The notes below the pieces were generated by a model, which saw only the letters and a program-made list of their open reading frames with translations, was not told where the DNA came from and did no database searches. From the IMG/VR virus record IMGVR_UViG_2740892214_000003: a DNA stretch of 8,865 nucleotides. One strand, written 5' to 3'. Below are positions 3,111 to 8,865 of this stretch, piece after piece; positions within the stretch are counted from its first letter, which is position 1; the number at the start of each line of letters is the position of its first letter. A program made the position numbers and the translations under genes. Origin of the DNA: a virus (Duplodnaviria > Heunggongvirae > Uroviricota > Caudoviricetes).

Positions 3111-3760
3111 GCCGCCATCTCCCTGACAAGTTTTTCTGCCTGCTGGCGAACCTGCGCCAGAAACGCCTCACCACATGCCTCAAGTTCATCGCGCCCGATG
3201 TAGCTGATTGCCGGTCCCTTCCAGGTCTTGTCGAAAACAGCAATAGCACCAGCGAAGAAAGCGCCTGTCGGCACCTGCTTCTCGTCCTTCGGGATAAACC
3301 AGGCTGGCAGTTCAAAACCAATACGCCCGCGAATAAAAGCAATATGGTCTGCATCTTCCGGCCACCACACTTCGCTGGTGGCAGCTTTGATCAGGAAAAC
3401 ATAGCGCCCGCCTTTATCACGCATAGCACTGGCATGTTTCATGATGTAACGCATGCCGGTGATGTATTGCCCCTCATGCTGACTGGCGCGGCTGTACGGG
3501 GGATTACCAAAGGCAGCACCTTTAAGCTCCGCAAGACGTTCTGACCAGTCATGCGCCAGCGCGTTGTCTTCCGCAGTGTAATAAGCGGCACATTTGGCGT
3601 TATCACCATCAGTGAACAGATCCAGAACAAACGGGCCAAACAGGGTGTTAATTCCCCAGAAAATGTTGTCCGGCGTGCGCCACTGATCGCCCACTTCCTT
3701 CAGTTCATGGGCTGGTTTGTTCCGCAGTTCCACCAGCGCCTGGCAATATTTATTACTCAT
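3107..3760 (-). CDS. Phage DNA N6-adenine methyltransferase (Dam-like, orphan)
   Basis: Motifs WRTP, FGNPPYS (the NPPY catalytic motif) and the FIRGRIGF region are typical of the phage Dam family. The ATG at 3758-3760 overlaps the upstream stop (TAATG); the track start at 3793 is a GTG and would overlap the upstream gene by 33 nt, so it is less likely. Confidence 0.85.
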   Translation of the reverse strand: MSNKYCQALVELRNKPAHELKEVGDQWRTPDNIFWGINTLFGPFVLDLFTDGDNAKCAAYYTAEDNALAHDWSERLAELKGAAFGNPPYSRASQHEGQYITGMRYIMKHASAMRDKGGRYVFLIKAATSEVWWPEDADHIAFIRGRIGFELPAWFIPKDEKQVPTGAFFAGAIAVFDKTWKGPAISYIGRDELEACGEAFLAQVRQQAEKLVREMAA

Positions 3761-5243: not shown

Positions 5244-5464
5244 GCCGCACCTCCGAGATGCTTCATGTTTTTTCCGGAGCGAAAGGCTATAAGCGGCATA
5301 CTGACGCGGTAATTACGACCCAGCGGTTCACAAATCACCTTCTGACATTCACGGTCCACCAGGCTAACACGTAGAACATGCCCTGCAGGCGTGGTGTACC
5401 ACTGACCGGGGCGAGGACAACGGAAAGTCTGATTGGTAAATCGTTTGAAAATATTCCGGATCAT
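5240..5464 (-). CDS. Hypothetical small basic protein (74 aa)
   Basis: ATG at 5462-5464 overlaps the Rha-ORF stop and its own stop overlaps the O-like ATG (ATGA both sides), which argues that it is translated. No family recognised. Confidence 0.5.
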   Translation of the reverse strand: MIRNIFKRFTNQTFRCPRPGQWYTTPAGHVLRVSLVDRECQKVICEPLGRNYRVSMPLIAFRSGKNMKHLGGAA

Positions 5465-6624
5465 TTGCGCCCCCTTACCTCTGAAGAGTTCAGCGACGAA
5501 TGAATAAGACGGGCAAGAAATGCCGCATCGTTAATTCGGTCATACAGACTTACAGCCAGAGGTGATTCAGCTTTTTCCAGCATGGGATAAAGCTGCTGCA
5601 ACCAGACCTGATGAATTGATGAAATGTAGGAATAGAGAACACTGGCGTTATGTGCAACGTCGCTCGGTACAGCGGGCTTTGAAAGCTGTTTCTCCATCTG
5701 GTTAAAGGCATTGATGTATGCCTCTTTGCACTGGGCAGCACGTTTACCCGTGAAACCCATAGCAAGAAACGCAAAGCCATCGCGGGTTATTTGATAGCAA
5801 GGTAGTTTGCGAGTACCGCCGTTGGGCTGGCGTACCAAAATTGATGTCTCCGCAAAATTGCGGGCACAAAACTCTGGAGAACAATCCAAAATGCGAATCT
5901 TTTTCAGAACATCGTCATGACGTTTAGAGAAGAAGTCAGCAACAGCCAAAGAAGATGTAACAGCCTGACCATCAACGATGGCAATTTCAGGTTGAGAGAG
6001 GGTTGGGAGAGTAGTCATAGTGACAGCCCCGGTAGTCAGTTTTTTAGAAAACTCACCACATGGGACGCCAATCACAGAGGTGGTGAGACGTACAGGGTTG
6101 GCGTTACCGGAGACTACCGAACCCGGCCCGACCGAAGTCGGCCCTGTACGCCCCACCATAATTTGGGCGTAGCAATGCTCATGACACGAAAAAACCGCAT
6201 GAGCGCGGTTATGCTCAGTAATCAATTTCAGGACGCCAATCCCGGCACCCGCTTTATAAGGTGCCTGAACAGTGTAACGTCCCGGAATGGCAGAATCAAT
6301 GTGCTGGTGGTCCTTCACACTCAACAAAATCACGCCTGAATTTCCACAAAGGACTAAAGCACTCATGCGGGTAGTCTTTGCGAAGATAGATAACGCGCTG
6401 TGTTTCTGGCTCCCAACGAATAACATGGACATAAAGCCCTCTTCCATCACGAAACCAGCGGTTAAGTTCCTGCACAACTCGCCCCCCACAGTCAGGTAAA
6501 GTTCTCTGTGGTTACTTACAGCCAGGTGATTTGGTAATCTGCATTCATGCCGTAACAACAGGTGTTCAGCGACACTGACCACCAGCTGTTGCGACAAACG
6601 GTTATTTGCCGTTAAACTGTTCAT
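5461..6624 (-). CDS. Rha-family phage regulatory protein carrying an unrecognised N-terminal extension of about 200 aa
   Basis: Residues about 215-311 (IAIVDGQAVTSSLAVADFFSKRHDDVLKKIRIL...RKLPCYQITRDGFAFLAMGFTGKRAAQCKEAYINAFNQME) match the pRha domain pattern. The same frame stays open for a further 606 nt upstream, to an ATG at 6622-6624 that overlaps the CII-like stop (ATGA). An alternative internal start is the ATG at 6016-6018 (MTTLPTL...). Confidence 0.6.
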   Translation of the reverse strand: MNSLTANNRLSQQLVVSVAEHLLLRHECRLPNHLAVSNHRELYLTVGGELCRNLTAGFVMEEGFMSMLFVGSQKHSALSIFAKTTRMSALVLCGNSGVILLSVKDHQHIDSAIPGRYTVQAPYKAGAGIGVLKLITEHNRAHAVFSCHEHCYAQIMVGRTGPTSVGPGSVVSGNANPVRLTTSVIGVPCGEFSKKLTTGAVTMTTLPTLSQPEIAIVDGQAVTSSLAVADFFSKRHDDVLKKIRILDCSPEFCARNFAETSILVRQPNGGTRKLPCYQITRDGFAFLAMGFTGKRAAQCKEAYINAFNQMEKQLSKPAVPSDVAHNASVLYSYISSIHQVWLQQLYPMLEKAESPLAVSLYDRINDAAFLARLIHSSLNSSEVRGRK

Positions 6625-7199
6625 GCGTTAGTTTCTCCACAGACACAAAACGCCACGACGCCCGGAGCTGCACACTCGCGGGCGTTACTCTTTTCCGGCG
6701 CACAAAAAACACGAAATAACAGTGTTAAATGCTCCTGCCACTTCGCCATTACTTGGTAGCTGTTCTCTTCGATTTGCTCACGCTCAGCCTGGTCAATAAC
6801 TCCATCAGCAGTTGCCTTGCGTAAGTACTGGGAATGCTTGCCAATCCATTCTATTGACTCCATCAGCCGCTGATTAATGTCACCATTGTCAATGTCATCA
6901 ATGACCACCAGCGGCACAAACACCCCATTACTACGACGGGCTATTGCATCTGTTATATGCCTGGTACCACTGGCATCCTGTAAAACCATGGCCCACTCAA
7001 GTGGAAAAATTTGATCCCCACCGCTACGCAGTCTGTTATGCAATTGATCTTTTGCTGGGGTGATATCATCAGATTTATACAAACCAAGAATTTCTGCTGC
7101 TTCCTCATAGCCATGAGGTAAATCAGCAATCGTTCTTCGTATTGCTGCCACCAGCCATGCTGGTTGTTTATCAACTTTCCATTCAGGTTCTTTACCCAC
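6621..7199 (-). CDS. CII-like regulatory protein (possibly CP76/YdaT family)
   Basis: 192-codon ORF immediately downstream of cro, the position of cII. Apparent GTG start at 7197-7199 with a GAGGA 7 nt upstream on the minus strand. The family assignment rests on position and a loose resemblance recalled from memory. Confidence 0.5.
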   Translation of the reverse strand: MGKEPEWKVDKQPAWLVAAIRRTIADLPHGYEEAAEILGLYKSDDITPAKDQLHNRLRSGGDQIFPLEWAMVLQDASGTRHITDAIARRSNGVFVPLVVIDDIDNGDINQRLMESIEWIGKHSQYLRKATADGVIDQAEREQIEENSYQVMAKWQEHLTLLFRVFCAPEKSNARECAAPGVVAFCVCGETNA

Positions 7200-7226
7200 G
7201 GTTAATTCCTCATTTCTGTGGTGTTT

Positions 7227-7424
7227 TTATGCCGCAGCACTGTTAGTCTTTTGATATAAAGACACGTCAACTTTCAGTTTTCCGTTAGTAATTTTTTCTA
7301 ACTGGTACGCTCGGCCTTCAGGAATAATCTCAGGCCACTCTGAAACAGACGGATGCTTAATACCTAGGGCTTCGGCGGTTTTACAAACTCCGCCGAAATA
7401 ATTAATCACGTCGGATTTCCGCAT
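7227..7424 (-). CDS. cro: Cro-type repressor (P22 Cro-like)
   Basis: MRKSDVINYFGGVCKTAEALGIKHPSVSEWPEIIPEGRAYQLEKITNGKLK parallels P22 Cro (MYKKDVIDHFGTQRAVAKALGISDAAVSQWKEVIPEKDAYRLEIVTAGALK). ATG at 7422-7424 with GGGAGA upstream; divergent from the repressor gene. Confidence 0.85.
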   Translation of the reverse strand: MRKSDVINYFGGVCKTAEALGIKHPSVSEWPEIIPEGRAYQLEKITNGKLKVDVSLYQKTNSAAA

Positions 7425-7456
7425 TTCTGTCTCCCGTTAAATTACGTTAAGCAGAA

Positions 7457-7474
7457 ATGTAGGATATCCAACAT
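7457..7474. promoter_or_regulatory. Operator (18-bp palindrome ATGTAGGATATCCAACAT) in the cro-proximal position
   Basis: Near-perfect inverted repeat; it is the exact reverse complement of the site at 8271-8288. Confidence 0.75.
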
Positions 7475-7485
7475 GCCAATGTCAA
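7457..7485 (-). promoter_or_regulatory. PR-like promoter for cro: TTGACA, 17-bp spacer, CTACAT (read on the minus strand)
   Basis: Minus-strand TTGACA (plus 7480-7485) and CTACAT (plus 7457-7462) with a 17-bp spacer. The same 35-bp module recurs at 8260-8289. Confidence 0.6.
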
Positions 7486-7496
7486 GAATCCTACAT
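7479..7496. promoter_or_regulatory. Degenerate operator (ATGTCAAGAATCCTACAT) with one good half-site
   Basis: The right half ATCCTACAT is a perfect half-site and the left half is poor. It lies inside the 9-bp inverted repeat TGCCAATGT...ACATTGGCA (7475-7500). Confidence 0.45.
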
Positions 7497-7503
7497 TGGC
7501 ATG

Positions 7504-7521
7504 TGGTAGGATTGCCTACAT
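7504..7521. promoter_or_regulatory. Degenerate operator (TGGTAGGATTGCCTACAT) overlapping the repressor start codon
   Basis: Matches 7 of 9 and 8 of 9 positions of the operator half-sites; sits in the position of an OR3-like site. Confidence 0.45.
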
Positions 7522-8173
7522 GATGAACATGAGTGATCGTATTCGCCAAAGGCGAAAAGAACTGAACCTGACACAACAAGCACTGGCTGATTTGACTGGT
7601 GTGAACCGTGTCACGGTTACTGGATGGGAAAAGGACGACTACCAACCAAATGGAGCCAACCTTCAAGCCCTAGCCAACGCACTTAAATGCGATCCTCTGT
7701 GGCTTGTTAGCGGAAAAGGCTCGCCTGAACCAAAGATAAATCTAAAACCTGAAATATTCGCAGTTAAAAAAGTCCCCCTCATCTCGTGGGTTCAGGCGGG
7801 TTCATGGACAATGACGGAGCCTGGTGTCAGGAAAGAAGATGCTGAAGAGTGGGTTTATACTACCGCCCTTGTATCAGAAATGGCATTTGCACTACGGGTC
7901 CGTGGTGATTCAATGACCAATCCCCTCGGCTCACCATCGATACCAGAAGGTTCTATCGTTATCGTAGAGCCAGATATTATTGATACAGAGTGTATTAACG
8001 GAAAAATCGTTGTTGCCCATATCAATGGTGGGCAAGAAGCGACACTCAAAAAATTTGTTGAGGACTGGCCGAACAGGTATCTCGTCCCACTAAATCCTAA
8101 CTATAAAACTATTGAATGCGGTGAGAACTGCAGAATAGTTGGTCTTGTCAAACAAGTAATAATGGATTTTTGA
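7520..8173 (+). CDS. cI: CI-type phage repressor: N-terminal HTH plus C-terminal S24 (LexA-like) autopeptidase
   Basis: The HTH region (LTQQALADLTGVNRVTVTGWEKD), an Ala-Gly site (VQAGSW), the catalytic Ser in GDSM and Lys in TLKKF are all present. The track start at 7496 is a TTG; the first ATG at 7520 sits under a degenerate operator and has a weak AGGA 8 nt upstream. Confidence 0.85.
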   Translation: MMNMSDRIRQRRKELNLTQQALADLTGVNRVTVTGWEKDDYQPNGANLQALANALKCDPLWLVSGKGSPEPKINLKPEIFAVKKVPLISWVQAGSWTMTEPGVRKEDAEEWVYTTALVSEMAFALRVRGDSMTNPLGSPSIPEGSIVIVEPDIIDTECINGKIVVAHINGGQEATLKKFVEDWPNRYLVPLNPNYKTIECGENCRIVGLVKQVIMDF

Positions 8174-8193
8174 CACATCTTCCTCACTATCGC

Positions 8194-8220
8194 AAAACCG
8201 GGGTATCCCCGGTTTTTTTA
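8194..8220 (+). terminator. Rho-independent terminator after the repressor gene
   Basis: aaaaCCGGGG-tatc-CCCCGGttttttt: GC stem, 4-nt loop and a run of 7 T, 21 nt after the repressor stop. An A-tract upstream means it could act in both directions. Confidence 0.8.
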
Positions 8221-8235
8221 TGAGCCTATCTTTTT

Positions 8236-8253
8236 ATGTAGGATAACCAACAT
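8236..8253. promoter_or_regulatory. Operator (ATGTAGGATAACCAACAT), OL-like distal site
   Basis: 18-bp near-palindrome matching the operator consensus ATGTWGGATATCCWACAT. Confidence 0.7.
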
Positions 8254-8259
8254 AAACTC

Positions 8260-8289
8260 TTGACACTTACATGTTGGATATCCTACATT
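8260..8289 (+). promoter_or_regulatory. PL-like promoter (TTGACA, 17-bp spacer, CTACAT/TACATT) for the operon to the right of the repressor
   Basis: Consensus -35 at 8260-8265 and a -10-like hexamer at 8283-8289, with an operator embedded; near-identical to the cro promoter module. Confidence 0.6.
8271..8288. promoter_or_regulatory. Operator (ATGTTGGATATCCTACAT) overlapping the spacer and -10 of the rightward promoter
   Basis: Perfect 18-bp palindrome of the same family. Confidence 0.75.
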
Positions 8290-8448
8290 TGTTTTTAGAG
8301 TTGTGGTGAATGCGCAGGCTGATGCGCGAAAGACATTGCAGCTATTGCGGAAAAGAGCTGTTCGGCGGGGCAATTAAACGCCCGTGAGAGTCTGAAATAA
8401 CCGCAAGCCGGAGATCAGCACCGGTCACCACAACAGCCACTGCTTTGG

Positions 8449-8495
8449 CGGTACCAGTTTGTACACTTGCTTCCGGCTGGTACCGCTCTTTTTAC
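8449..8495 (+). terminator. Terminator-like hairpin in the PL leader (10-bp GC-rich stem, 19-nt loop, TCTTTTT tail)
   Basis: GCGGTACCAG (8449-8458) pairs perfectly with CTGGTACCGC (8478-8487) and is followed by tcttttt. The large loop makes the function uncertain; it could be a terminator, an attenuator or a structured RNA element. Confidence 0.45.
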
Positions 8496-8630
8496 AAAAC
8501 AGAGAAGAGCATCACCGGACGACGGGCTCATAACCCAATCCATCCGGGCGGCTGCCACCGCAGGTGTTCTTCTCTGTTTTGTGGAGAAACCAACCGACCT
8601 TGCAGGGTCGATATGATGAGGAGCAGCAAA

Positions 8631-8865
8631 ATGGCTAGCGAACGCAGTACTGATGTGCAGGCATTTATCGGGGAGTTGGACGGCGGCGTATTTGAAACCA
8701 AAATCGGCGCAGTTCTCAGTGAAGTCGCTTCAGGTGTGATGAACACGAAAACCAAAGGTAAGGTCTCACTCAACCTGGAAATCGAACCATTTGATGAGAA
8801 CCGTGTGAAAATCAAACACAAACTCTCATATGTTCGCCCGACTAACCGCGGGAAAATTTCTGAAG
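8631..8865 (+). CDS. Hypothetical protein, 5' part only (runs off the window end)
   Basis: ATG at 8631 preceded by GAGGAG 7 nt upstream. The frame is open to the window end (MASERSTDVQAFIGELDGGVFETKIGAVLSEVASGVMNTKTKGKVSLNLEIEPFDENRVKIKHKLSYVRPTNRGKISE...). It is not arginine-rich, so not an N-like antiterminator. Confidence 0.55.
   Translation, partial: MASERSTDVQAFIGELDGGVFETKIGAVLSEVASGVMNTKTKGKVSLNLEIEPFDENRVKIKHKLSYVRPTNRGKISE

Follow-up and report, generated by a model that had tools for sequence, protein, structure and literature searches.

The window analyzed in this study (the whole stretch of 8865 bp) was found to be the early region of a lambdoid prophage, in an orientation opposite to that of the usual lambda map. 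It contains a cro gene and a repressor gene that are divergently oriented, with three operator-like sites between them and two further sites beyond the terminator of the repressor gene (Table 1). Besides its assignment to the P22_Cro family, the Cro protein showed a match to the structure of P22 Cro (1rzs, E 7e-12), and in identical prophages the gene product is named ‘Cro/CI family’ by PGAP. The repressor contains a helix-turn-helix at residues 17–37 and an intact S24 self-cleavage domain, with the cleavage site Ala93-Gly94 and the catalytic residues Ser131 and Lys177/178. Its N-terminal domain was similar to P22 C2 structures (E 4e-14) and its C-terminal domain to lambda CI (E 1e-22). The start codon at 7520 is the one annotated by PGAP for the repressor in identical E. 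coli prophages.

Table 1. Features of the immunity region and adjacent genes. Positions are those of the window; mismatches are counted against the operator pattern ATGTWGGATATCCWACAT.
Feature	Position	Strand	Description
CII-like gene	6621–7199	-	located after cro
cro	7227–7424	-	65 aa; P22_Cro family, Pfam PF14549 (E 7.6e-22, above the curated cut-off)
PR	7457–7485	-	-35 TTGACA 7485–7480, 17-nt spacer, -10 CTACAT 7462–7457
OR1	7457–7474		ATGTAGGATATCCAACAT; 0 mismatches; over PR spacer and -10
OR2	7479–7496		ATGTCAAGAATCCTACAT; 5 mismatches, fifth best in the window; weak
Proposed PRM	7484–7512	+	weak -35 AAGAAT 7484–7489, 17-nt spacer, extended -10 TGG-TAGGAT 7504–7512
OR3	7504–7521		TGGTAGGATTGCCTACAT; 4 mismatches, fourth best in the window; overlaps PRM -10 and repressor ATG
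Repressor gene	7520–8173	+	217 aa; Pfam HTH_3 and Peptidase_S24
Terminator of repressor gene	8194–8223	+	intrinsic; AAAACCGGGG TAT CCCCGGTTTTTTT
OL2 (upstream OL site)	8236–8253		ATGTAGGATAACCAACAT; 1 mismatch; centre approximately -51.5 from the predicted PL start
PL	8260–8288	+	-35 TTGACA 8260–8265, -10 CTACAT 8283–8288
OL1	8271–8288		ATGTTGGATATCCTACAT; 0 mismatches; over PL spacer and -10; 35 bp from OL2
yfdP	start 8631	+	

The terminator of the repressor gene consists of a perfect 10-bp inverted repeat (8194–8203 and 8207–8216) followed by a T-run and abuts OL2. A hairpin with a T-run was present at this position in all relatives (see below). A match to the Rfam family ‘Termite-leu’ at 8179–8261 was discarded; it had an E value of 0.49, far under the gathering score, and corresponds to this terminator hairpin.

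Five 18-bp sites of the pattern ATGTWGGATATCCWACAT flank the repressor gene, and they were shown to be the five best matches to the pattern in the 8865-bp window, with 0, 0, 1, 4, and 5 mismatches. All remaining matches in the window had at least six mismatches and were scattered. At a threshold of three mismatches or fewer, exactly three matches were found (7457–7474, no mismatch; 8236–8253, one mismatch; 8271–8288, no mismatch), while approximately 0.01 matches were expected from dinucleotide shuffles and none of 200 shuffles reached three. Each of these clean sites is self-complementary at 16 of its 18 positions, since positions 5 and 14 are A/T-degenerate. This agrees with the original prediction that three clean and two degenerate palindromes flank the repressor gene, the degenerate ones ranking fourth and fifth among all matches in the window. 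The three OR sites are arranged as 18-4-18-7-18 and run into the repressor ATG.

The two promoter regions form a 40-nt inverted repeat, of which the arms (7448–7487 and 8258–8297) are 85% complementary. Both arms contain TTGACA-N17-CTACAT (equivalently N18-TACATT, which matches the consensus at 10 of 12 positions), and they face outward, on the minus strand toward cro and on the plus strand toward yfdP. PR and PL each have the 18-mer ATGTTGGATATCCTACAT as the operator covering spacer and -10, if the sequence is read along the direction of the promoter. The almost identical promoter module that had been described on both sides of the repressor gene was therefore found as claimed, but this duplicated module is simply OR/PR together with OL/PL, the normal lambdoid arrangement. 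Transcription is predicted to start at approximately 7448–7450 from PR and at approximately 8295–8297 from PL. The sole candidate for PR was a promoter whose -10 lies within OR1 and whose -35 lies in the half of OR2 that is nearer to OR1, and it was also detected by a promoter scan in two of the relatives (L066 and L079).

Inverted repeats of this kind could also be terminal repeats of a cassette that moves or recombines, instead of regulatory DNA. The degree of complementarity of the arms, the presence of a single gene between them, and the right end of the similarity of the immunity module at approximately 8300, just past the arm, would be in line with this. However, each arm is a complete outward sigma-70 promoter, the relatives conserve the positions of operators and hexamers and not the whole arm, and the same arrangement is present in P22 and the phage 21 immunity region (imm21). 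Neither a transposase nor a target duplication is present. We consider a mobile cassette to be extremely improbable.

In a scan of viral contigs, the repressor was identical at 62 loci and showed 76–92% identity at a further 18. From a scan of genome contigs four loci were obtained, three of them informative, which added sequences from Enterobacter soli, Pantoea brenneri, and Erwinia tracheiphila. A multiple alignment comprised nine distinct sequences with repressors that were 76–100% identical. In the relatives with 76–92% identity (Enterobacter, Pantoea, Erwinia, and IMG/VR contigs), all five sites were found in place, whereas the spacers had diverged. Within the nine-sequence alignment, OR1 was invariant at 18 of 18 positions, OR2 in its ATGTCAAGA and TC.TAC parts, and OR3 was almost invariant, with TGGTAGGAT..CCTACAT being fully conserved. 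The spacers between the OR sites (4 nt and 7–8 nt) were freely substituted in the same alignment. The TTGACA hexamers of both PR and PL were invariant in the relatives, as was the 35-bp spacing between OL1 and OL2. The outer positions of OL1 and OL2 were conserved as well, while the central 4 bp of OL2 and all flanking DNA varied.

On the protein level, the helix-turn-helix sequence LTQQALA..GVNRVTVTGWEKDDYQPNG was invariant in this group, whereas the rest of the repressor showed identities down to 70%. More distant phages showed a different picture. The repressor of Yersinia phage YeP2 (64% identity) has the recognition helix VSRVTVTGWE and related operators with ATGTCAGAT halves, and that of Pantoea phage AH07 (50% identity) has the helix VSRVSVTKWE and different operators of the GTAAC-N6-GTACA type. 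Thus, in YeP2 and AH07 the layout is unchanged while operator and recognition helix have both changed. Such co-variation of operator and helix within a fixed architecture fits the expectation for an immunity determinant, and it supports the earlier suggestion that the operator sequence defines the immunity specificity of this prophage.

Among characterized proteins, P22 C2 was the closest to the repressor (44% identity across 95% of its length), along with the imm21 repressor, which is almost the same as C2. The organization of the switch was shown to be very similar to that of P22. The centres of the OR sites are spaced by 22 and 25 bp, compared to 23 and 25 bp in P22, and the distance between OR1 and OL1 is 814 bp, compared to 819 bp in P22. 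OL1 and OL2 are 35 bp apart in P22, imm21, and the window, with the PL -35 located between the two sites in P22 as well as here. In P22 OR3 directly abuts the c2 ATG, and in the window the last two bases of OR3 (7504–7521) overlap the ATG at 7520, so that the repressor start indeed lies under a degenerate operator, as had been noted previously. The hexamers of the proposed maintenance promoter PRM occupy the same operator positions as in P22, and both phages have a Cro of the P22_Cro family and 18-bp operators with an A/T-rich centre, of which the outer positions are those contacted in P22.

There were also differences from P22 in the organization. P22 and imm21 have a third OL site, and the window has two. 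PR is located approximately 14–16 bp closer to cro than in the P22 record, where PR is annotated as TTGACT (3687–3692) and GATAAT (3709–3714), with OR1 over the start and the -35 at the edge of OR2 that faces OR3. Because PR is placed otherwise than in the P22 record, the analogy to P22 is incomplete. The proposed PRM has a TGn extension, which is lacking in P22. Downstream of PL, P22 contains nutL and gene 24, whereas in the window PL is followed by a yfdP-type leader that lacks an N gene; relatives were found to carry a P22/lambda-like CATCAACAGCG leader.

The operator sequence itself was clearly different from that of P22. The consensus operator of P22, ATTTAAGATATCTTAAAT, is reportedly the site used in Koudelka’s crystal structures. 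Compared to this reported sequence, the window consensus ATGTAGGATATCCTACAT is changed at just two positions per half-site, 3 and 6 (operator positions 3, 6, 13, and 16), a comparison in which our own scan of P22 defined only the outer operator halves, ATTTAAG-N4-CTTAAAT. The P22 and imm21 operators showed 5–7 mismatches to the window pattern at its 14 specified positions. The P22 repressor contacts operator positions 2–7 and 12–17 but not 8–11, and it no longer binds specifically when position 3 is substituted (PMC4267663). In the relatives, OL2 is conserved in its outer positions and varies in the centre, which corresponds exactly to this contact pattern. The recognition helices also differ, with NRVTVTGWE in the window and SNVAISQWE in P22, so that neither operator nor helix is shared as would be expected for homoimmunity with P22 or phage 21. 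Since the operators differ at positions 3 and 6, which are contacted in P22, the prophage should be heteroimmune to P22. The description of the switch as P22-style thus holds for its architecture (the 18-bp operators, the OR spacing, the position of OR3 at the ATG, and the 35 bp between OL1 and OL2) but not for its specificity. From the sequence comparisons taken together, the region 7457–8289 is very probably an immC-type lysis/lysogeny switch of the P22/phage 21 build with an operator specificity of its own (half-site ATGTWGGAT).

The switch shares with lambda the divergent PR and PRM, a tripartite OR in which OR1 covers the spacer and -10 of PR and OR2 is located at its -35, and a repressor C-terminal domain that is homologous to that of CI, including the Ala-Gly site and the Ser/Lys dyad. 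However, lambda operators are 17 bp long and of the TATCACCGCCGGTGATA type, whereas the sites in the window are 18 bp long and unrelated to them in sequence. Furthermore, lambda Cro belongs to a fold family other than P22_Cro, and lambda contains three OL sites as well as rexAB between cI and OL.

A third OL operator was searched for near PL, allowing up to five mismatches, and in the relatives, and only the two sites were found. The Stx phage 933W has a lambdoid switch without OL3 and provides a precedent for a two-site OL, although its repressor and operator sequences are different from those of the window (PMC5977221). As discussed for 933W, a two-site OL may influence the amount of repressor or how easily induction occurs. 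As a separate observation, a structured PL leader is present, which we leave unexplained. The possibility of an HK022 put-like RNA was rejected, as the leader showed no sequence similarity to the PL-nun region of HK022, matched no Rfam family, and was not repeated on the downstream side of PR within the window.

Of the OR sites, OR2 deviates most from the pattern. Its right half-site is perfect, and the PR -35 stands in place of the left one. OR2 may not be a real site, because it has five mismatches and its right half decays further in some relatives, and its occupancy would need cooperativity. OR might accordingly be functionally a two-site region (OR1 and OR3), in which 7479–7496 would comprise only the PR -35 and the relic of a half-site, without being bound by the repressor. 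This would account for the five mismatches and for the decay of the right half to TCTTACCT in relatives L065 and L078–L082; the PR -35 is sufficient to explain the left half. In addition, the 933W repressor was reported to lack cooperative binding to OR1 and OR2, showing that lambdoid switches vary in this respect (PMC5977221). Nevertheless, OR2 lies 4 nt from OR1 and 7–8 nt from OR3 in all relatives, a position that it also has in P22, most relatives retain one perfect OR2 half-site, and the lambda CI domain responsible for pairwise cooperativity has its homologue in the C-terminal domain of the repressor. A two-site OR is therefore regarded as unlikely, and a three-site OR with a weak OR2 is preferred.

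The original prediction further proposed that a TAGGAT hexamer upstream of the repressor ATG is the -10 of a PRM-like promoter with a short leader or none. TAGGAT was found at 7507–7512, and the gap between it and the ATG is 7 nt, which suits initiation at the AUG or directly before it. The presence of TAGGAT in itself proves nothing, because TAGGAT is part of every operator half-site. However, the first two bases of OR3 are TG instead of the consensus AT, which creates a TGn-TAGGAT extended -10, and TGn precedes TAGGAT in OR3 only. This departure from the consensus is invariant in all relatives, as is the complete TGGTAGGAT. TAGGAT corresponds to positions 4–9 of OR3 and AAGAAT to positions 6–11 of OR2, the same operator positions as those of the PRM hexamers annotated in P22. 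In the P22 record, PRM is AGGAAT-N17-TAAGAT, with the same 17-nt spacer as in the window and a transcript start 4 nt before the c2 ATG. The 7-nt gap between -10 and ATG also recurs in YeP2 and AH07, despite their different operators. The positions shared with P22, the invariant TGn, and the 7-nt distance to the ATG make TAGGAT credible as the PRM -10, and on balance we regard this assignment as probably correct.

With this PRM, transcription is predicted to start at 7518–7520, giving a leader of 0–2 nt. A leaderless or near-leaderless repressor transcript is thereby plausible; the cI mRNA of lambda is leaderless. The AGGA at 7508–7511, 8 nt before the ATG, could equally serve as a Shine-Dalgarno sequence for transcripts that start further upstream. 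The proposed -35 matches TTGACA at only two of six positions, and it would be covered by OR2, with the centre of OR2 at approximately -30.5. This is the geometry annotated for P22, unlike the activating geometry of lambda, in which the centre of OR2 is located at -42 from the PRM start.

The lambda-type activating geometry would instead be obtained with a maintenance promoter consisting of TTGGCA (7496–7501), a 17-nt spacer, and CATGAT (7519–7524), which is predicted to start at approximately 7529–7531, the third ATG at 7529 then being leaderless. This is the only consensus match on the plus strand upstream of the repressor gene (9 of 12 positions). It would place the centre of OR2 (7487.5) at approximately -41.5, counted to 7529, and its -35 in the spacer between OR2 and OR3, as in the OR sequence of lambda. 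Still, TTGGCA was shown to vary even among loci with a 100% identical repressor, where it is TGGGCA or TGGTCA (L063 and L064), the spacers of the relatives with 76–92% identity are unrelated, and the promoter was not found by the scan in L066 or L079. Furthermore, only 4 nt separate CATGAT from the ATG at 7529, and both YeP2 and AH07 have retained an ATG at the edge of OR3. The lack of conservation of TTGGCA-N17-CATGAT led us to reject it as the principal model, and we consider it quite improbable. The TAGGAT promoter is retained as PRM in the following.

Judging by the protein families, the switch is predicted to operate as follows. In a lysogen, repressor dimers would bind strongly to OR1 and, cooperatively, to the weak OR2, so that the -10, spacer, and -35 of PR would be covered; cro and the rightward early genes would then be switched off. 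Binding to OL1, which covers spacer and -10 of PL, and to OL2, just upstream of the PL -35, would shut off the leftward operon. The repressor itself would be transcribed from the weak PRM, mostly by means of the extended -10 (TGGTAGGAT) inside OR3, and the 5′ end of its mRNA would lie at the AUG at 7520 or within 2 nt of it. At high repressor levels OR3 would be filled, and the repressor would turn down its own promoter. Upon DNA damage, RecA-stimulated self-cleavage at Ala93-Gly94 by the Ser131/Lys177 dyad would free PR and PL, and Cro would then bind to the same sites and silence PRM.

It could be speculated that the switch is a distinct design variant of the P22 type, in which an activator-independent extended -10 PRM with a truly leaderless repressor mRNA, a near-vestigial OR2, and a two-site OL jointly set a steady-state repressor level and a threshold of induction other than those of P22 or lambda. 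With only two OL sites, OR3 would have no OL3 partner for a loop-mediated shut-off of PRM. We consider this reading doubtful, but if true, it would bear on the inducibility of Stx2c phages with this immunity region.

The immunity region was shown to be 99.4–99.8% identical to regions in three Stx2c-converting phages, in Lys8385Vzw, and in a prophage of the ETEC strain H10407. Besides, the phages vB_EcoM-720R4 and SKA5 showed 99.2–99.6% identity over 92–96% of the query. Among 5426 complete E. coli genomes, 135 contained at least 80% of the 1451-bp query (window positions 7200–8650). Searches for the operator sequence (as 13-mers) and for this immunity type gave no match in the literature searched. 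The architecture of the switch is well known, while its operator specificity is uncharacterised.

The results reveal no new regulatory principle but are useful for annotation and immunity typing. Homo-immune prophages can be predicted from the operators, and the operators can be used in the design of reporter or induction assays for the Stx2c phages that carry this region. In addition, the switch is a natural specificity-swap partner for the repressor–DNA system of P22, with two contacted base pairs changed per half-site and matching changes in the recognition helix.

The leader of PL, the predicted promoter reading towards yfdP, was found to fold strongly (MFE -135 kcal/mol, z -5.4), with a 13-bp stem and a long hairpin (see table). 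Heteroimmune phages (mEp460, cdtI and Stx2a phages) share this leader at 96-100% identity, and since the similarity starts at about position 8300, directly past the predicted PL start, a module junction is placed there. No Rfam family was found for the leader, no similarity was detected to the PL-nun (putL) region of HK022, and the annotation of the left operon contained no N gene. The leader may serve as an element for antitermination or processing. It includes a small Arg-rich ORF (MRRLMRERHCSYCGKELFGGAIKRP) for which PHROG gave no match, and a boxA-like motif, CGCTCTTTTTA, which was the sole motif of this kind in the window. Because about 0.5 such motifs are expected per window by chance, the motif is only suggestive.

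Features of the PL leader and RNA matches within ORF 5461-6624
Feature	Position	Strand	Description
PL leader	8296-8630	+	335 nt, ahead of yfdP
Arg-rich ORF	8310-8387	+	25 codons, within PL leader
13-bp stem	around 8445-8487	+	folding, in PL leader
boxA-like motif	8484-8494	+	directly ahead of long hairpin in PL leader
Long hairpin	8489-8585	+	folding, in PL leader
C4 antisense RNA	6076-6163	-	Rfam, strong, 82 bits (gathering score 45)
isrK RNA	6188-6264	-	Rfam, strong, 59 bits

A 14-nt direct repeat was common to the regions where translation of the cII-like gene (7206-7219) and of cro (7417-7430) starts; the copies read TTCCTCATTTCTGT and TTCCGCATTTCTGT on the + strand, which corresponds to ACAGAAATG(A/C)GGAA in gene sense. 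Among the comparison records, operators and recognition helix were practically the same in the lambda h434 imm21 locus (L093) and the P22 immunity locus (L083). In this imm21 record a stop codon breaks the repressor reading frame, in line with the shortened repressor that the record mentions. The KilA-N domain gene (ORF 1548-2378, - strand) is broken by a run of masked bases at about 1650-1950 (X in the translation), which is a data gap and not biology.

Besides the strong C4 and isrK matches, Rfam gave a weak match to the c4-a1b1 target in the same region (6076-6277, - strand). These matches fall within a mechanically called ORF of 387 aa (5461-6624, - strand), labelled 'peptidase' in the annotation of phage Lys8385Vzw, which is probably over-extended across the RNA genes; the RNA matches lie upstream of a coding part of the Rha/Ash antirepressor-like type. 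The whole appears to be an insert, with the cII-like gene on one side and the replication genes on the other. The otherwise identical ETEC H10407 prophage does not contain it. The RNAs and the antirepressor-like part look like a c4/ant module of the P1 immI type, a second immunity layer.
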